This document shows, piece by piece, positions 390 through 41,333 of a DNA stretch of 41,526 nt; position 1 is the first letter of the stretch, and each line of letters begins with the position of its first letter. The notes beneath the pieces were generated by a model. The model did no database searches and was not told the origin of the DNA. It saw nothing but the letters and a program-made list of their open reading frames with translations. Where the stretch lies: NCBI GenBank assembly GCA_030612885.1, contig JAUWMZ010000006.1, positions 1 through 41,526 on the forward strand, read 5' to 3'. Made by a program: the position numbers and the translations under genes. The DNA comes from Candidatus Nealsonbacteria bacterium (GTDB lineage Bacteria; Patescibacteriota; Minisyncoccia; Minisyncoccales; JAGMDC01).

Positions 390-1472
390 ATGTTTTCCTA
401 TAAAAACCTATACAATTATTATCTTAAATGCAGAAGAGGTAAAAGGAATACCATTAATGCCTTGAAATTTGAGCTTAACGCAGAGGAAAACCTTTTGAGA
501 TTGGAAGAGGAATTAGAAAGCCGCGCCTATAAACCCTCAAGATTGATTTATTTCATAATTGAAAAACCAAAACCGAGAGAGATATTCGCTTCTGATTTTA
601 GAGACCGCGTGGTTCATCATATTTTGATAAACCGCTTAGAACCAATCTGGGAACCGAAATTCATTTATGACTCCTACGCCTGCCGTCAAGGAAAAGGAAC
701 ACACCGGGCAGTTGCCAGATTGCAAGCTTTTACCAGAAAGATTTCTTTAAACGGAGAAAAACCAGCTTTTTTTATGAAGTTAGACATTAAAAGCTTTTTT
801 GTCAGCATTGACCGCAAGATACTTTATAATTTGATTAAAAAGGAGATTAAAGACGAAAACATTTTATGGCTTATAAAGGTGATTATATTCTATGAATGCA
901 CTAAAAATTTTGTTTTTAAAGGAAATGAAAAACTGAAAAAATTAATACCTTATCAGAAATCTTTATTCCAAAACGAAGGCAGCGGCAAGGGACTGCCCAT
1001 CGGAAATTTAACCAGCCAGTTTTTTGCCAATATTTATCTCAACCAGATAGACCAATTTATTAAGCATAATTTAAAATGCAGATATTATATTCGCTATGTT
1101 GACGACTTTGTATTATTGGATAGAAACAAAAATCAGCTGGTAAAATGGAAAACAGCGATAGACAATTTTTTAAAAAAAGAATTAAATATAGTTCTTAATC
1201 CCAAGAAACAAAGCATTTCGCTTATAACAAATGGAATAAATTTTTTAGGATATATTATAAGGCCTAATTATATTTTAGTTAGAAAAAGAGTGGTTAACAA
1301 TTTTAAAAGGAAACTTTTTGAAGCAGAAAGAAAAATAAAAAATAGAGAATTTTTAGATTGGGGTTTACTCCAAGCCACCTTTAATAGCTATTTTGCTCAT
1401 TTTAATCATGCCAATAGCTATGGATTAAAAGAAAAATTTACATTAAAATTAAATCAGTGTTATAATAATTAA
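390..1472 (+). CDS. Reverse transcriptase, diversity-generating retroelement (DGR) type
   Basis: 360 aa. FRDRVVHHIL, DSYACRQGKGTH, LPIGNLTSQFFANIYL (nt 999-1019; the [ILV]GxxxSQ motif distinguishes DGR RTs from the QGxxxSP of group II intron RTs) and the YVDD catalytic box (nt 1095-1106). Confidence 0.88.
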   Translation: MFSYKNLYNYYLKCRRGKRNTINALKFELNAEENLLRLEEELESRAYKPSRLIYFIIEKPKPREIFASDFRDRVVHHILINRLEPIWEPKFIYDSYACRQGKGTHRAVARLQAFTRKISLNGEKPAFFMKLDIKSFFVSIDRKILYNLIKKEIKDENILWLIKVIIFYECTKNFVFKGNEKLKKLIPYQKSLFQNEGSGKGLPIGNLTSQFFANIYLNQIDQFIKHNLKCRYYIRYVDDFVLLDRNKNQLVKWKTAIDNFLKKELNIVLNPKKQSISLITNGINFLGYIIRPNYILVRKRVVNNFKRKLFEAERKIKNREFLDWGLLQATFNSYFAHFNHANSYGLKEKFTLKLNQCYNN

Positions 1473-7095: not shown

Positions 7096-7188
7096 CTTTT
7101 GCTTCGCAAAAGGAATTTCTAATTTCTAATTTCTAATAAATTTCTAATTTTTTAATTTCTAATTGAAAATTATTAAATTGAAAATTTT
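7096..7188. repeat. GC hairpin plus AT-rich heptamer array (aatttct / ttgaaaa units) filling the rpmJ-rpsM spacer
   Basis: ccttttgc-ttc-gcaaaagg perfect 8-bp hairpin (7096-7114), then aatttctaatttctaatttctaat...aattgaaaattattaaattgaaaatttt running up to the rpsM ATG. No Shine-Dalgarno. Confidence 0.7.
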
Positions 7189-8750: not shown

Positions 8751-8879
8751 AATTTTAAAAATTTTCAATTTTCAATTTTCAATTTTCATTCAATTTTCAA
8801 TTTAATAATTTTCAATTAGAAATTAAAGAATTAGAAATTTATTAGAAATTAGAAATTAGAAATTAGAAATTTAATTTGT
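8751..8879. repeat. AT-rich heptamer arrays ((aattttc)n then (agaaatt)n) filling the rpsD-rpoA spacer
   Basis: aattttcaattttcaattttcattcaattttcaattt...attagaaattagaaattagaaattagaaattt. Period 7; the two arms are imperfect inverted copies. Confidence 0.75.
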
Positions 8880-19373: not shown

Positions 19374-19494
19374 AATTTTCAATTTCTAATTTTCAATGAA
19401 TTTTCAATGTCTTAATTTTCAATTATTAAAATAAATTATTTGAAAATTGAAAATTGGGATTTGATTGATAATTGATAATTGAAAATTATTCTTT
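19374..19494. repeat. AT-rich heptamer palindrome (ttttcaa / ttgaaaa units) filling the murA-mreB spacer
   Basis: aaattttcaatttctaattttcaatgaattttcaatg...tttgaaaattgaaaattggg...gataattgaaaattattc. No SD before the ATG at 19495. Confidence 0.75.
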
Positions 19495-23155: not shown

Positions 23156-23298
23156 GCTATCCACAGACATTTTTCTAAAATTTTGTTATACTAATAAAAA
23201 ATAAAAGATATGTTTAATCCAGAGAAACAATCATCATTTGAAAAGGGACCAGAGAGAGACCATCTGCACAAGAAGAGAGGGCGGAGGAAAAAAGAAAC

Positions 23299-23499
23299 TT
23301 GGAAAAGAGACTTGAGAAATTAATTGGGAAAGAAGTTATTAGTTTTAAGGTAAATGATTTTTGTGATGTTGAAATAAAATTTAAAGATGGGACTGTACTT
23401 TCTTTTAACAACTGGAGTCCTCGCGATGATATACCAGATTTTGAAGATATAAAAGTTGAACTACCAAAAGAAAAAGAAAAACAGGAAGAACAAGAATAA
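23299..23499 (+). CDS. Hypothetical small acidic protein; start unresolved
   Basis: The ORF-track start is a TTG. An ATG at 23210 lies in another frame that stops at about 23320, so a 1-nt indel near 23240-23250 would fuse the two frames. Confidence 0.3.
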   Translation: MEKRLEKLIGKEVISFKVNDFCDVEIKFKDGTVLSFNNWSPRDDIPDFEDIKVELPKEKEKQEEQE

Positions 23500-23527
23500 A
23501 TAGCGTGTATTATACACAAAATAAATT

Positions 23528-23557
23528 TCACCGAGAATATTCTCGGTGATTTTTTTG
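23528..23557 (+). terminator. Rho-independent terminator
   Basis: tcaccgagaa-ta-ttctcggtga followed by a T7 run. Confidence 0.8.
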
Positions 23558-23590
23558 TTGATTATTTTTGGTTTTTAGGATAGAATAAAA

Positions 23591-23712
23591 AAATAAGAAC
23601 CTGCTTCGTTCCGCTTCCAACGGAACTCGGCAGAACCTTGATTCCTTCGTAAATAAGAACCTGCTTCGTTCCGCTTCCAACGGAACTCGGCAGAACCTTC
23701 TAATTCCTTCGT
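23591..23712. repeat. Tandem duplication (2 x ~60 bp) of an agaacc-flanked hairpin element upstream of proS
   Basis: aaataagaacctgcttcgttccgcttccaacggaactcggcagaaccttgattccttcgt is repeated immediately; copy 2 differs only near its 3' end (cttctaattcc). Internal hairpin gttccg-cttccaa-cggaac. Confidence 0.9.
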
Positions 23713-23762
23713 TCGGTTAAAACACAAAAACAAGTTTTTGTATTTTTTCCTCACTCACAATT

Positions 23763-25013
23763 ATGAGGCAATCGCAACTTTTTACTAAAACAATTAGAGA
23801 AGCATCGAAAGATGAGAAATCTCTAAACGCTCAACTTTTGCTTAGGGCTGGTTTTATTGATAAATTAAGCTCTGGTGTTTACACTTTTCTGCCTTTGGGC
23901 TTCCGAGTTTTAGAAAAAATTGAAAAAATAATTTCTCAAGAAATAGAAAGTATCAATGGCCAAAGAATTTTAATGCCAACCCTTGTTTCTAAGAAGAATT
24001 GGCAGCAAACTGGCCGCTGGAAAGCATTTGAAGAACTTTACAAAGTTAAAGGAAAAGGTGGTCAAGAATACGGTTTAGGTTCAACCCATGAAGAGGTGAT
24101 AGTGCCAGTGGTTCAGAAATATGTTTCTTCTTATAAGAATTTGCCTTGTTATGTTTACCAAATCCAAACAAAATTTAGAGATGAAATCAGAGTAAAGTCA
24201 GGAATTCTTAGAACTCGGGAATTTGATATGAAAGACCTTTATTCTTTTCATAAAGATGAAAAAGATTTAGATAAATATTACGAAAAAGTTAAAAAGACAT
24301 ATTTTGATATTTTAAAAAGAATGGGTTTAAAAGATAAAACTTATTTAACTTTAGCATCTGGCGGCACTTTTTCTAAATTTTCTCATGAGTTTCAAACCAT
24401 AACTCCGGCTGGTGAAGATATTGTACATATCTGTCAAAACTGCGGCTTGGCTGTCAACGAAGAAATCAAAAAAGACCATTCTAAATGTTTTCAATGCGGC
24501 AGAAGAGAGTTTAAAAAAGAAAAAGTTATTGAAGTAGGTAATATTTTTAAACTGGGCACAAAATATACCAAACCGTTTAATTTTCAATTTACAGACAAAG
24601 ATGGTTCAAAGAAATTAGTAGTAATGGGCTGTTATGGAATAGGTCTTAGTCGTTTAATGGGAACAATAGCAGAAGTTCATAATGATAAAAGTGGAATTAT
24701 CTGGCCCAAAGAGGTGGCGCCGTTTGATGCTCATTTAATCCAGATCGGAAATAGTAATGAAATTAATAAACAAACAAAAAAGGTGTATAATGCTTTTGAG
24801 AAACAAGGAATTGAAGTGTTGTATGATGACAGGGAGGATAAATCTCCTGGAGAAAAATTTGCTGATGCTGATTTGATTGGAATACCTTTAAGAATTGTGA
24901 TAAGCGAACGAACCTTGGCTAAAAATTGTGTTGAAATAAAAAAGAGAAGCAAAACTAAAACAGAGTTAGTAAAGTTAAATTTACTAAATTCATATATTTG
25001 TAAAAATTCATAA
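23763..25013 (+). CDS. proS: Proline--tRNA ligase, compact form without INS editing domain
   Basis: MRQSQLFTKTIREASKDEKSLNAQLLLRAGFIDKLSSGVYTFLPLG, YQIQTKFRDEIR. A Cys4 segment CQNCG...CFQCG sits where the INS domain normally is. 416 aa. Confidence 0.88.
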   Translation: MRQSQLFTKTIREASKDEKSLNAQLLLRAGFIDKLSSGVYTFLPLGFRVLEKIEKIISQEIESINGQRILMPTLVSKKNWQQTGRWKAFEELYKVKGKGGQEYGLGSTHEEVIVPVVQKYVSSYKNLPCYVYQIQTKFRDEIRVKSGILRTREFDMKDLYSFHKDEKDLDKYYEKVKKTYFDILKRMGLKDKTYLTLASGGTFSKFSHEFQTITPAGEDIVHICQNCGLAVNEEIKKDHSKCFQCGRREFKKEKVIEVGNIFKLGTKYTKPFNFQFTDKDGSKKLVVMGCYGIGLSRLMGTIAEVHNDKSGIIWPKEVAPFDAHLIQIGNSNEINKQTKKVYNAFEKQGIEVLYDDREDKSPGEKFADADLIGIPLRIVISERTLAKNCVEIKKRSKTKTELVKLNLLNSYICKNS

Positions 25014-26069: not shown

Positions 26070-26216
26070 AATTTTCAATTTTCAATTTTCATTAAATTGC
26101 AATTCTACGAGGAGTCCCGAACTTCGTTCGGTACAGCAATTCTAAAATTTTCAATTAAATAATTAGAAATTAGAAATTTAATAGAAATTAAATAATTAGA
26201 AATTAGAAATTTTATT
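26070..26216. repeat. AT-rich heptamer arrays flanking a central GC hairpin, mreB-gatC spacer
   Basis: aattttcaattttcaattttc..., then attgcaattcta-cgaggagtc-ccgaac-ttc-gttcgg-tac-agcaattcta, then ...attagaaattagaaattt. Confidence 0.75.
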
Positions 26217-26495: not shown

Positions 26496-27937
26496 ATTTA
26501 ACTAATCTCACTATCACCAAAACCCATCAGGGTTTAATAAATAAAGATTTTTCCGCTGTAGAGCTAACTAAGGCCTATTTAAATAAAATAAAAAAAGAAG
26601 ATAAAAAAATTCATTCTTTTTTGACAATTTCTAAAGATTTAGCTTTTTCTCAAGCCAGGGAAATAGATAAAAAAATCTCTAAAAAAGAAAATATAGATTT
26701 ATTAGCTGGAATTCCCAGCGCTATTAAAGACAACATAATGGTAGAGGACATTAGATGCACAGCTGCCTCAAAGATTTTAGAGAATTATGTTGCTTCTTAT
26801 AATGCTACAGTGATAGAAAAACTAAAAAAAGCAGGAACAGTAATTTTAGGAAAGACAAATTTAGATGAGTTTGCTATGGGTTCTTCCTGCGAAAATTCTG
26901 CTTTTGGAACGACAAAAAACCCCTGTGATTTAAAACGAGTGACTGGCGGTTCTTCTGGCGGTTCAGCTGCTGCTGTGGCTGCTGACTTATGCGGTTATGC
27001 TTTGGGTTCTGATACCGGCGGTTCTATTCGCTTGCCAGCATCATTTTGCGGAGTTGTTGGTTTAAAGCCGACTTATGGAACTGTCTCTCGTTATGGTTTA
27101 ATTGCTTTTGCTTCTTCTTTAGATCAAATTGGGCCAATAACTAAAACGATTGAGGACTGTAAAATTGTTTTTGACGCTATTAGTGGTTGGGATGAGATGG
27201 ACAGTACTTCGGTAAATTCAAAATTCAAAATTCAAAATTCAAAATTACAATTCAAAATTGAAAATTTACGCATTGGTATACCGAAGGAATATTTTGTAAA
27301 GGGAATGGACAAAGAAGTTGAAAAGAAGATTAAAAAAGCAATTAAAAAATATGAAGCTCGGGGAGCAAAAATTATAGAGGTCTCTCTGCCTCATACAGAA
27401 TATGCTCTGCCAGTTTATTATATTATTAGTACTTCAGAGGCAAGCGCTAATCTGGCTCGTTATGACGGAATAAGATACGGAAAGTCAAAAGTCAAAAAAT
27501 CAAGAGTCAAAAGTTTATTAGATGTTTATTTAGAAAATAGGGGACAAGGTTTTGGAGACGAGGTAAAAAGGAGAATAATGCTTGGAACATATGCTTTATC
27601 TTCTGGTTATTATGACGCCTATTATTTGAAAGCTCAGAAAGTTAGAACCTTAATTAAACAGGATTTTGAAAATGTTTTTAAGAAAGTAGACGTTCTTTTA
27701 ACTCCGGTTTCTCCTACTACTGCTTTTAAGATCGGAGAGAAAACGGATAATCCTCTAACAATGTATCTTTCTGATATTTTTACCATTTCAGTTAATTTAG
27801 CCGGATTGCCTGCTTTGTCTTTACCTTGCGGTATGGTTGGAAAACTGTCAGTGGGTTTACAAATTATCGGTAAGCCATTTGAAGAAGAAAGAATCTTAGA
27901 GATAGGGAAAACACTTGAAAACATATTAACATCCTAA
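26492..27937 (+). CDS. gatA: Glu/Asp-tRNA amidotransferase subunit A
   Basis: Amidase signature GGSSGGSAAAVAADLC..LGSDTGGSIRLPASFCGVVGLKPTYG. Confidence 0.93.
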   Translation: MNLTNLTITKTHQGLINKDFSAVELTKAYLNKIKKEDKKIHSFLTISKDLAFSQAREIDKKISKKENIDLLAGIPSAIKDNIMVEDIRCTAASKILENYVASYNATVIEKLKKAGTVILGKTNLDEFAMGSSCENSAFGTTKNPCDLKRVTGGSSGGSAAAVAADLCGYALGSDTGGSIRLPASFCGVVGLKPTYGTVSRYGLIAFASSLDQIGPITKTIEDCKIVFDAISGWDEMDSTSVNSKFKIQNSKLQFKIENLRIGIPKEYFVKGMDKEVEKKIKKAIKKYEARGAKIIEVSLPHTEYALPVYYIISTSEASANLARYDGIRYGKSKVKKSRVKSLLDVYLENRGQGFGDEVKRRIMLGTYALSSGYYDAYYLKAQKVRTLIKQDFENVFKKVDVLLTPVSPTTAFKIGEKTDNPLTMYLSDIFTISVNLAGLPALSLPCGMVGKLSVGLQIIGKPFEEERILEIGKTLENILTS

Positions 27938-29954: not shown

Positions 29955-34033
<4,079 letters not shown>

Positions 34034-34491: not shown

Positions 34492-34570
34492 TTTTTATTT
34501 TTGCTCTGTTATTTTGCATTTTGCATTTTACATTTTGAATTTTGCATTTGACCGAGCGAAGCGAGAGAAC

Positions 34571-39010: not shown

Positions 39011-39751
39011 ATGAAAAATATTGCTAAATTTACCCGCCATAATTTTTCTTTAGAAAATTTAGGCGGGTTAATTGACCATACTAATATCAAATTTGGTGCT
39101 ACTGCCAGAGAGATAAAAAAAACCTGTGACGAAGCGAAAAAATATAGCTTTCGGAGTGTTTGTATAAATCCAGAATGGGTGAAATTAGTTAAAAAAGAAT
39201 TAAGCGGAACAGAAATAAAAAAGGTGGTTTTAATTGATCCGCCAATGGGTTTAAGCTCTCATCAAGCAAGAGTAAAGATGTGCCAAAAAGCAAAGAAAGA
39301 CGGCGCAGATGAATTAGATATAGTGATGAATATCGTTGACTTGAAGTATGAGAAATATGCTCAAGTTTTAAAGGATTTAAAAGAAATTTGTAAGATTTTG
39401 CCAACAAAGGTAATTATTGGTTCCGGCTATCTGACTGATGAAGAAATAAAAATTGCTTCTCAATTAGTTAAAAAAGCTGGAGCAATTTGTGTCAAGACAG
39501 CTACTTTTAAAGATCCTTTAGAAAACAGAGAATTAGAAGAAAAAGCCAGGCATTTAAAAATTATGCGAAAGGCGGCTCCTGGTCTTTTAATCAAAGCAGC
39601 CGGAAAGATTAAGACCCTGAAAGACCTTAAAATGATGGTTAGGGCAGGAGCAGATATAATTGGGACAAGCAGCGGAGTATCAATTATAAGAACCTGCTCG
39701 CTTCGCTCGCAGAACCTTGAAATTAAAATTATAAAAGAACTTAAAAAATAG
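39011..39751 (+). CDS. deoC: Deoxyribose-phosphate aldolase-like (DeoC family)
   Basis: [59 protein letters not shown] (Schiff-base Lys context), [19 protein letters not shown]. Confidence 0.72.
39687..39720. repeat. agaacc-flanked element in-frame near the 3' end of the deoC-like CDS
   Basis: ataagaacctgctcgcttcgctcgcagaaccttga shares ataagaacctgc...gcagaaccttga with the 23591 tandem element. Encodes ..[11 protein letters not shown].. Confidence 0.65.
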
Positions 39752-39755
39752 TTGT

Positions 39756-41333
39756 ATGAGTTATTTTCCAACTGTCGGTTTGGAAATCCATGCCGAATTA
39801 AAAACTAAGAGTAAGATGTTTTGTAGTTGCGTCAATGACCCGGATGAAAAACAAGCCAATATTAATATTTGTCCAATTTGCACAGCTCATCCGGGCGTAT
39901 TGCCGGTTATAAATAGAGAGGCAGTAAGAAAAACAATAAAAACCGGCTTAGCTTTGAATTGTCAAATTCCTCAATATTCTAAATTTGATAGAAAAAACTA
40001 TTTTTATCCGGATTTGCCAAAAGGATATCAAATTTCTCAACTTTATATGCCGTTTTGTGAAAATGGATTTTTAGAAATCAATAATAGGAATATCAGAATA
40101 AGAGAAATTCATTTAGAAGAAGATACGGGAAGGCTAGTTCATCCAGAAGGGGTTGATTATAGTTTAGTGGATTTTAATCGAGCAGGTGTTCCTTTAATGG
40201 AGTTGGTTACAGAACCAGACATTCATTCAGCAAAAGAAGCGAGAAAATTTGCTGAAGAATTCCAATTAATTTTAAGATATCTTGATGTTTCTTATGCCAA
40301 TATGGAAAAGGGACAATTACGTATTGAAGTGAATATTTCACTTCAATGCAAATCCAAAATCCAAATGACAAAATCCAAATCAAATCCAAAACCCAAAACC
40401 CAAAACCCAAAACTTGGCACAAAGGTTGAGATTAAGAATTTAAATTCATTCAAGGCAGTGGAGAAGGGGATTGAGTATGAAATTGAGAGGCAATCAGAAA
40501 TTTTAGAAAAAGGAGAAAAAGTCATTCAAGAAACGCGTGGCTGGCATGATGCAAAACAAATAACAATAAGCCAGAGAGAAAAAGAAGAAGCCCACGATTA
40601 TAGGTATTTTCCAGAACCAGACTTGACGATGATAAAAATAGATATTAATAAGAACATTTCACTTCGTTCAAGAACCTTGATTTCCTCGCTTTACTCGGAA
40701 AATAAAATTAAATCAGAGATTTCTGAACTGCCTCAAGCTAAAAGAGAGAGATTTAAAGCAGAATATGATTTGTCATACAATGAGATAGAAGTTTTTGTTC
40801 AGAATAAAAACTTTGGAGAATATTTTGAAAAAGTAATGTCAGAGCTAAGAAACTGGATAAAAGAAACAGATATAAAAAGAAAAGTTGAAAGAGAGGAATT
40901 TTTAAAACTAGCAAAAATTTGCGCTAATTATACTATTACTGATTTACAGGGATTATTAAAAGGTATGGATATTAAGAGTAAAGATTTTTCAATTACTGCA
41001 GAAAATTTTGCTGAATTTATTACCTTGCTTTATAAAAAAGAAATTTCATCAAAGATCGCCAAAATAGTTTTGAGCGAAATGTTTAAAACCGGCGCTGATC
41101 CATCACACATTATTAAAAATAAAGGACTAAGCCAAGTAACCGATGAATTAGAAATTGAGAAAGTTATAAAGGACATAATTTCAAAAAATCCTCAACCAGT
41201 TGAAGATTATAAAAAAGGAAAAGAAAACGCTTTACAGTTTTTGATAGGCCAGGTAATGGCAGCTACCAGAGGCAAAGCCAAACCAGAGACAGTGAACAAG
41301 ATTTTAAGGAAAAACTTGACCCCGCACCTTTAG
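39756..41333 (+). CDS. gatB: Glu/Asp-tRNA amidotransferase subunit B (with two in-frame low-complexity/repeat insertions)
   Basis: [82 protein letters not shown]-terminal GatB/YqeY domain LQFLIGQVM. Confidence 0.92.
40648..40698. repeat. agaacc-family element in-frame in gatB
   Basis: aataagaacatttcacttcgttcaagaaccttgatttcctcgctttactcgg shares aataagaac, cttcgtt and agaaccttgatt(t)cct(t)cg with the 23591 element. Encodes [18 protein letters not shown]. Confidence 0.65.

Follow-up and report, generated by a model that had tools for sequence, protein, structure and literature searches.

The stretch of DNA analyzed here, referred to as the window, is 41,526 nt long and corresponds to contig C10 of a Candidatus Nealsonbacteria genome of 693 kb, 34% GC, and 10 contigs, labeled G000 below. 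Gene calls are our own longest open reading frame (ORF) calls. In the window, the aminoacyl-tRNA synthetase gene proS is preceded by the intrinsic terminator of an upstream unit, by a sigma-70–like promoter placed directly after that terminator, and, between promoter and start codon, by a tandem repeat (Table 1). TRF resolved positions 23591-23712 into an array of period 60 with 2.0 copies and a score of 223, in agreement with an earlier note on this DNA that had described a tandem duplication of a 60-bp hairpin at these positions. The two units are 60 and 62 nt long and share 49 nt at 100% identity. Each unit runs from TAAGAACC through TGCTTCGTTCCGCTTCCAACGGAACTCGGC to AGAACCTT, and its middle part forms one hairpin inside another. 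The pairing of CTGC..GTTCCG with CGGAAC..GCAG that the earlier note reported, with AGAACC at both flanks, is present in each unit. The units diverge after AGAACCTT, where unit 1 has G and unit 2 has C, and the latter junction form is found wherever a unit is fused to the segment designated module P. A CRISPR-like array was considered and rejected, as the spacers between units are only ~13 nt long and are not unique.

Table 1. Features of the proS locus and copies of the element inside genes of the host genome; positions refer to the window unless a contig is named
Feature	Position	Strand	Description
Intrinsic terminator of upstream unit	23528..23556	+	TCACCGAGAATATTCTCGGTGA then T run; context, outside the element
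Sigma-70–like proS promoter	23558..23586	+	TTGATT-17 nt-TAGAAT, directly after the terminator
Unit 1 core	23594..23640	+	Left box TAAGAACC 23594-23601; right box AGAACCTTG 23632-23640
Unit 1 hairpin 1	23602-23631	+	Nested; GTTCCG/CGGAAC within TGC..GCA
Degenerate second hairpin and inter-unit junction	23641..23653	+	ATTCCTTCGTAAA; typical copies have ATTCC-TTC-GGAAT
Unit 2 core	23654..23700	+	Matches unit 1 through AGAACCTT, then C (AGAACCTTC)
Module P	23701..23762	+	TAATTCCTTCGTTCGGTTAAAA, AT-rich hairpin (ACAAAAAC/GTTTTTGT), then CCTCACTCACAATT abutting the proS ATG
proS	23763..25013	+	Class II aaRS core and anticodon-binding domain
Copy in DeoC-family gene	39690..39734	+	45-nt insert (15 codons), sense, ten codons before the stop
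Copy in gatB	~40650..40705	+	54 nt (18 codons), sense, diverged, left box AAGAACA
Copy in 120-aa ORF	C1:10054	antisense	42 nt after codon 6
Copy in gene for conserved 354-aa protein	C5:90696	antisense	~63 nt

The segment between the −10 box and the proS ATG, ~170 nt (23594-23762), is made up of unit 1, unit 2, and module P, and it places the start codon ~176 nt from the promoter. In genomes G003 and G006 and in the metagenomic relatives L101 and L102, the insert is absent and the proS ATG stands 6 nt after the −10 box of the same promoter; the terminator upstream of proS is kept in G003, G006, and L101. None of the ~50 proS relatives carries the insert. The spacing suggests that the arrangement in the relatives is leaderless-type and ancestral to the proS insertion, and the proS locus is evidently a three-module composite insertion (unit–unit–P) that landed in the 6 nt separating the ATG from the −10 box. 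No strain-level proS alleles were detected in metagenome contigs, where the best match reached only 74% identity. Module P constitutes a repeat family of its own, which ends in ...CACTCACAATT followed by ATG at several gene starts in G001 and G003 and which is often fused to an AGAACC-box unit through the variant junction of AGAACCTTC with TAATT. In a single case, at G001_C4:109147, module P is inserted alone, and a duplication of ATTATG restores the start codon. At proS, the insertion would convert a leaderless-type mRNA to one with a structured leader of ~170 nt, in which the AUG after ...ACAAUU could still serve as the start. A Shine-Dalgarno–like motif is present in only ~10% of the genes of this genome, and the upstream regions are A/T-rich with T at −1; such sparse use of Shine-Dalgarno sites would probably allow the ~170-nt leader to be tolerated.

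A loose regular-expression scan of the whole genome detected ~19 copies of the AGAACC-box unit at ~16 loci. Matches were also counted with a strict pattern, TAAGAACC-N3-33-AGAACCTTG, for which the reversed pattern served as control. The strict pattern gave 16 matches in this genome and the reversed pattern gave none in any of the 41 genomes of the same order, and the family therefore exceeds chance. The strict pattern occurs in 18 of those 41 genomes at up to 40 copies per genome, the richest being G003 and G030 with 40 each; tandem arrays with a period of 43-46 are frequent in the order, with many copies placed at contig ends. The phylum was sampled evenly with 401 genomes, of which 16 have the strict pattern; these 16 are scattered over many families and have identical boxes, although approximately three of the singleton matches resemble chance, the reversed control there giving stray single matches at a similar rate. 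No true family copy was recognized among the first 120 pattern matches in viral contigs, a number close to chance expectation by our rough estimate; three of the 120 have a paired inner segment, and these are near-identical copies of a longer sequence unlike the family. A full-text literature search found no published description of an AGAACC-box element.

The general plan of the unit is (A)ATAAGAACC, a variable hairpin (hairpin 1), AGAACCTTGA(TT), often a second AT-rich hairpin (hairpin 2), and ...AATAA. Units range from 45 to 60 nt over the whole family and are typically ~45-50 nt long. The proS copies, which the earlier note regarded as the prototype, turn out to be an atypical variant whose hairpin 1 is nested and longer, and they are part of a composite insertion. 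An identical long hairpin 2 (e.g., ATTTTCACGGCTACGCCGTGAAA) is common to subfamilies at unrelated loci in two genomes, indicating that hairpin 2 travels with the element. Copies occupy intergenic spacers, stop codons, start codons, and, in frame, the interior of genes, and they are found in both orientations. Relative to the flanking genes their orientation is mixed, with 23 loci co-oriented and 14 anti-oriented, which argues against an orientation-dependent mRNA signal.

To describe how the boxes and stems vary, we aligned 22 copies of the same length from 10 genomes. Every box position is invariant in the aligned copies, and all four variable stem pairs exhibit compensatory double changes, amounting to 17 cells versus 4.8 in shuffles. 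The proportion of paired cells is 96.5%, compared with 89.8% in shuffles and 15-51% in slid registers, and none of 500 shuffles reached the observed value. The boxes are therefore constrained by sequence and the stem by structure. If G.U is counted as a pair, AGGUUCU (the complement of AGAACCU) is complementary to itself, and the boxes flanking hairpin 1 pair only on the complementary strand, forming seven pairs that include two G.U, together with one U.U. On that strand the box pairing extends hairpin 1, whereas the written strand gives a 3x3 A/C loop. The earlier note had described the boxes as direct AGAACC repeats; a wobble palindrome of the complementary strand is the better description.

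The two strands also differ in predicted stability. With RNA parameters, 57 of 61 copies fold better as the complementary strand (mean −10.6 versus −7.0 kcal/mol), and with DNA parameters that strand is favored in 53 copies versus 5. In the symmetric register, mismatches within the stem of the written strand comprise 70 C.T/T.C versus 2 G.A/A.G, and the C.T/T.C mismatches of the written strand are tandem G.A pairs on the complementary strand. The central loop is TTC or TTT in 32 of 53 distinct copies, so that the complementary strand has GAA or AAA at this point. Exceptionally stable hairpins of single-stranded DNA and RNA are typified by C-GAA-G triloops and by tandem sheared G.A pairs. The calculated stabilities and the types of mismatch suggest that what is recognized is probably one folded single strand.

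Filled and empty flanks were compared with two genomes of the same genus, the whole of G001 and ~70% of G003. At more than 20 loci in G000, G001, and G003, a filled site in one genome corresponds to a clean empty site in another, and the copies are therefore insertions. At one gene end, two independent insertions lie a few nucleotides apart (G000 C2:36601 and G003 C56:82229). A few copies are orthologous between G000 and G003 (e.g., C5:91257) and most are lineage-specific; the family has thus been active since the divergence of these species, and we infer that it is active in the present population. The target is duplicated, being repeated on both sides of the copies over 6-27 AT-rich nucleotides, and the preferred target word is ...(A)WTAA. 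The repeated target is typically 8 nt long and ends in TAA, as in GGAAATAA, AATTATAA, and AAAATTAA; longer forms of 12 nt (TTTGATTGTAAA) and ~20-27 nt (G003 C23:186134) are also found, and the duplicate is in many cases imperfect. In most copies the TAA of TAAGAACC comes from the target, which is why copies often begin on a stop codon. In hairpin 2, the 3′ arm overlaps the right-hand target copy and the 5′ arm is complementary to that copy, with arm pairs such as TTCC/GGAA, TTAC/GTAA, TTTC/GAAA, and TAATCAAAC/GTTTGATTA. Empty sites resemble the head-to-tail junction of arrays (e.g., GTAATTATGAAA at an empty site versus GTAATTAAGAAC in arrays). In one copy, at G003_C23:171743, the left junction lies within the box and reads AAAAACC.

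We conclude that the proS repeat probably represents two head-to-tail copies of a miniature, gene-less mobile element, the AGAACC-box hairpin element, inserted together with module P. The element may spread in a copy-and-paste manner in the form of a folded strand, which is most likely single-stranded DNA, with a trans-acting protein that would read the boxes by sequence and the hairpin by shape, and with short homology or pairing between the element end and the target guiding integration. A sequence-reading factor is called for by the conservation of the boxes. The variable, imperfect duplications and the junction-like targets point to integration that is coupled to replication and guided by homology or pairing, as opposed to a fixed staggered cut, and the tandem arrays would be explained by the element's own right end being a good target.

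The same junctions could in principle be produced with no dedicated enzyme, by template switching (copy-choice) during replication at short homologies beside stable hairpins: a nascent strand would stall at an AT-rich site, jump to a copy already present through a homology of 6-12 nt, copy one or more units, and return to its first template. The variable length of the repeated target (6-8, 12, or ~20-27 nt) and the frequent imperfection of the copies fit such a process, as do the resemblance of targets to the junction of right end and left box, the single left junction inside a box, the abundance of tandem arrays, and the lack of any transposase that correlates perfectly with the element. Slippage, however, is not known to copy efficiently between distant loci, and it needs no conserved sequence-specific factor, whereas boxes that are invariant across the order and the scattered families beside freely varying stems imply one. 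We consider template switching unlikely, though it is the strongest of the rival explanations.

The AGAACC-box element has also inserted within genes. The earlier note had pointed to versions lying in frame in the deoC-like gene and in gatB, and both are insertions. The DeoC-family insert consists of 37 nt of element and the repeated AATTATAA, lies near the C terminus of the protein, and is not present in the G001 and G003 orthologs. The gatB copy falls in the linker between GatB_N and GatB_Yqey and is an insertion relative to G003. Two further intragenic copies bring the number to four of the ~16 loci in this genome, and all four preserve the frame (42, 45, 54, and ~63 nt), as expected if only such insertions survive. 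The G003 ortholog of the gene for the 354-aa protein contains two units, and its ORF is still open. With copies throughout the genome, filled and empty sites, compensatory changes, and these in-frame insertions, the note's suggestion of a small-hairpin family that invades spacers as well as ORFs is supported. Rickettsia palindromic elements (RPEs) behave similarly in that they are selfish palindromic repeats found in frame inside conserved genes of a reduced genome. RPEs, as described from Rickettsia, are a size class of ~100-150 bp and presumably unrelated in sequence; the present units are 45-60 nt long and belong to another phylum, and we know of no RPE with the design of invariant boxes and a hypervariable stem.

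Proteins that could mobilize the element were sought among the 41 genomes of the order. Transposases of the Y1 HUH type (Y1_Tnp, PF01797) are encoded in 15 of the 18 element-positive and 8 of the 23 element-negative genomes, an association of roughly p = 0.003 by our own estimate, uncorrected for kinship. There are exceptions: G028 has 17 copies of the element and no Y1 match, and G001 has three Y1 genes and ~2 copies. Five Y1 genes are present in G000, and their best model is the NCBIfam REP-associated tyrosine transposase (RAYT), at 35-46 bits, below the cut-off of 80. Ten RAYT-like genes in G000, G001, and G003 are bracketed by their own unrelated palindromes and not by AGAACC units. Thirty-eight genes are shared by G000 and G003 and missing from the copy-poor G001, and there is no transposase or recombinase among them; this set includes secreted DNase I-like and PD-(D/E)XK-like proteins, named by eye from motifs. 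No longer autonomous element with the same ends was seen in G000, G001, or G003. An IS91-type Y2 transposase, an idea that came from the GTTC and CTTG words in the box, was rejected, as PF04986 is found in none of the 41 genomes. On this evidence the RAYT-like Y1 HUH transposases, acting through a single-strand hairpin mechanism, are the best candidate for the mobilizer, and a tentative one.

In several respects the element resembles the REP/BIME/REPIN sequences of Proteobacteria, which are mobilized by RAYTs. Both consist of imperfect hairpins of ~30-50 nt whose stems vary and whose foot bears a conserved single-stranded box, both occur in many copies, dispersed and clustered, in both orientations, and with strand-specific structure, and in both cases the genome contains RAYT or RAYT-like genes. 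Unlike REP sequences, which have GTAG/CGTC at the foot, the units carry AAGAACC and AGAACCTTG (GGTTCT when read from the opposite strand) to either side of the hairpin. In addition, the target is repeated, four of the ~16 loci are inside ORFs rather than extragenic, no RAYT-like gene is bracketed by the units, and the host is a member of the CPR. Miniature elements derived from IS200/IS605 (PATEs) likewise have subterminal hairpins, here hairpins 1 and 2, and no terminal inverted repeats; an AT-rich target word and a hairpin 2 whose 5′ arm is complementary to the target copy recall the guide–target logic of IS608, and one strand appears to be active. The duplications of 6-27 nt are unlike IS200/IS605, which have fixed cleavage words and no duplication, and, to our knowledge, target duplication is not a feature of the known Y1 elements (IS200/IS605, REP). 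Bacterial MITEs (Correia/NEMIS, ERIC, RUP, BOX) resemble the element as small gene-less repeats with insertion polymorphism that may carry promoter parts, the right box of the element holding the local −35 word TTGATT, and that may be cotranscribed or translated. The element differs from them in having no Watson–Crick terminal inverted repeats, no target duplication of fixed length, and a shorter unit (45-60 nt).

A Xer-like tyrosine recombinase (Phage_integrase family) is encoded by one gene in 39 of the 41 genomes, the element-rich G028 included, and near-universality makes this gene uninformative on association. The folded strand could nevertheless be a substrate for this single host recombinase at pseudo-sites with a short core, in the manner of attC sites or IMEX. 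The likeness to integron attC sites is structural: conserved short end boxes, here ending in AAC/GTT, enclose a hairpin that is conserved in structure and not in sequence or length and that has strand-specific mismatches. A near-universal enzyme would explain conservation of the boxes across lineages, and the resemblance of targets to the junction of the element is compatible with a requirement for core homology. Yet the boxes (TAAGAAC/GTTCTTA) do not follow the R″/R′ consensus of attC, RYYYAAC/GTTRRRY; there is no cassette gene and no integron integrase, and it is the units themselves that multiply. No dif-like site for comparison was found in this genome by similarity to four known dif sequences, a universal enzyme leaves the patchy distribution unexplained, and duplications of up to 27 nt are unexpected from tyrosine recombination. 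We therefore regard Xer-mediated movement as improbable, more so than template switching.

Retroposition of a small structured RNA, as for SINEs, would have a reverse transcriptase carry out target-primed synthesis at nicked AT-rich ...TAA sites. It would accommodate the variable duplications, the AT-rich target, and the microhomology at the ...TAA/GAACC junction; the G.U-bearing strand gains far more stability under RNA than under DNA parameters, and a reverse transcriptase gene lies in the window at 390-1472. There is no poly-A–like tail, and there is no systematic one-sided truncation. The reverse transcriptase domain RVT_1 (PF00078) shows no association with the element, being encoded in only 9 of the 41 genomes (5 of 18 positive and 4 of 23 negative) and missing from the richest, G003 and G030, as well as from G031, G034, and G026. 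Reverse transcriptase was accordingly rejected as mobilizer, and retroposition is very unlikely. Our ranking of mechanisms places RAYT-like HUH transposition first, though as less likely than not, followed at decreasing likelihood by template switching, Xer recombination, and retroposition; the remaining weight falls on some other factor.

A cis-regulatory RNA of proS (T-box, attenuator, or leader) in place of a mobile repeat would suit a position downstream of the promoter and ahead of the start codon in an aminoacyl-tRNA synthetase gene, and would suit the strong structure (fold z-scores of −4.1 on the + strand and −5.8 on the − strand), but it is refuted as the primary explanation by the absence of any such sequence upstream of proS in the relatives examined, by the occurrence of the unit at ~16 unrelated loci in both orientations and inside ORFs, and by Rfam, which gave no match to the proS repeat at gathering thresholds and only far sub-threshold noise at permissive ones. 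A secondary effect of the insertion on proS expression is possible.

For the AGAACC-box element as a mobile hairpin, one may speculate that it represents an undescribed class of ultra-small (45-60 nt) CPR mobile element with no inverted repeats and no gene. Such an element would act as a folded single strand that presents wobble-palindromic GGTTCT boxes and a G.A/GAA hairpin, pairing between the hairpin 2 arm and the target would guide its integration, and it would be moved by a RAYT-like HUH protein acting on repeats that do not flank its own gene or by the host Xer recombinase; we put this forward as a possibility that is more doubtful than the mobile nature of the repeat itself. The combination of invariant boxes, a hypervariable paired stem, strand-specific G.A pairs and GAA loops, and variable duplication falls outside the rules of REP, MITE, and IS200/IS605 elements. 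New here are the wobble-palindrome reading, the quantified strand asymmetry, the targets that mimic the junction, the negative reverse transcriptase and Y2 tests, the neutral Xer test, and the unit–unit–P anatomy at a leaderless-type promoter.

Few known genomes are as small and streamlined as those of CPR/Patescibacteria. The element has colonized their promoters, their stop and start codons, and the reading frames of essential genes such as gatB and an aldolase gene, suggesting that active selfish DNA is present even in genomes of 0.7 Mb. The element naturally supplies in-frame peptide insertions and rearranged promoters and, if the proposed reading is correct, it routinely rebuilds gene ends, promoters, and protein loops in minimal genomes. 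Because many copies lie at contig ends, it also breaks metagenome assemblies. Finding the box-reading protein could reveal a new mode of moving DNA or a compact programmable integration signal.

Three other segments of the window that the earlier note had counted as relatives do not belong to the family. The gyrB segment (33724-33790) is a variable, low-complexity Lys/Ala/Glu-rich linker between Toprim and GyrB_C whose match to the element extends over only ~8 nt; all three genomes of the genus have this linker, with two 6-nt indels as the sole difference. At 34546-34560, the CGAGCGAAGCGAG core is part of a heptamer-repeat insertion shared with G003. The hairpin at 26110-26135 represents another, 30-nt insertion, which lacks AGAACC boxes and is flanked by an 8-bp duplication of its own (CAATTCTA). 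What the three segments have in common, in place of the family boxes, is a GC-TTC-GC mini-hairpin motif (GAA on the other strand).

Module P, the third repeat module, which is fused 3′ of the two AGAACC-box hairpin units before proS, is a repeat family of its own, with copies in the source genome and in the same-genus genomes G001 and G003 (see table). The module includes a terminator-like AT-rich hairpin, and the end of the module coincides exactly with start codons (...CACTCACAATT|ATG). In G001 the module was inserted by itself, and duplication of ATTATG restores the start codon.

The linker between GatB_N and GatB_Yqey is an insertion hot spot, because the AGAACC-box family copy of the source genome occupies the same position at which gatB is interrupted in both same-genus genomes by a stop, with a new ATG after it; the G001 linker carries an additional GC-rich hairpin insert of ~110 nt. 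The tiny hairpin insertion at 26107-26136 of the window (30 nt, core CCGAAC-TTC-GTTCGG) lacks AGAACC boxes and represents a second type; it is bordered by an 8-bp duplication, CAATTCTA, and is missing from G003 and G001. Directly 5′ of a GTG/ATG start, positions 34511-34565 hold (ATTTTGC)n heptamer repeats followed by GAGCGAAGCGAG, an insertion with a counterpart in G003 that has a longer GC-rich part and with none in G001.

Five RAYT-like Y1 HUH transposase genes are encoded in the 693-kb source genome, three of them framed by matching, gene-specific inverted repeats of 15-22 nt. One RAYT-bracketing palindrome of G001, ACGAAGGTCGGGCCTTCGT, is present in seven genomic copies, which suggests that REP/RAYT-type systems exist in CPR bacteria. 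One ORF of the window encodes a reverse-transcriptase (RVT_1) domain; RT genes are present in just 9 of 41 related genomes.

Coordinates of module P, transposase and RVT_1 genes, gatB and repeat arrays
Feature	Genome	Location	Remark
Module P	Source	window 23701-23762	
Module P	G001	C4:109147-109212	
Module P	G003	C23:167294-167362, 170698-170765	
RVT_1 ORF	Source	window 390-1472	
RAYT-like Y1 HUH genes	Source	C4:49544-50275; C4:129733-130476; C5:10917-11768; C2:97977-98756; C7:2973-3707	
gatB	Source	window 39756-41333	single ORF
gatB	G001	C2:~158630-158990	split
gatB	G003	C23:~220660-220700	split
7-nt repeat arrays	Source	window 7114-7164, 8760-8871, 19374-19487, 26070-26211, 27214-27266	

Across the whole source genome, an SD-like motif lies no more than 20 nt from the start in only ~10% of ORFs, T occupies −1 in 54% of start contexts, and positions −3 to −5 are A-rich. 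Together with the proS arrangement in relatives, where the ATG lies 6 nt past the promoter −10 box, these features suggest that SD-independent or leaderless initiation is widespread. Further upstream of proS, ~370 nt (23156-23527) separate the end of the rseP-like M50 protease gene (23155) from the intrinsic terminator at 23528; this interval contains a short plus-strand ORF ending at ~23499 and lacks a counterpart in G003, which has just ~60 nt at that place.

Many intergenic 7-nt repeat arrays (AATTTCT, AATTTTC, ATTAGAA, AAATTCA) are found in the window, frequently as mirrored pairs about gene boundaries, and are probably the "family A" of the earlier sequence-only note.
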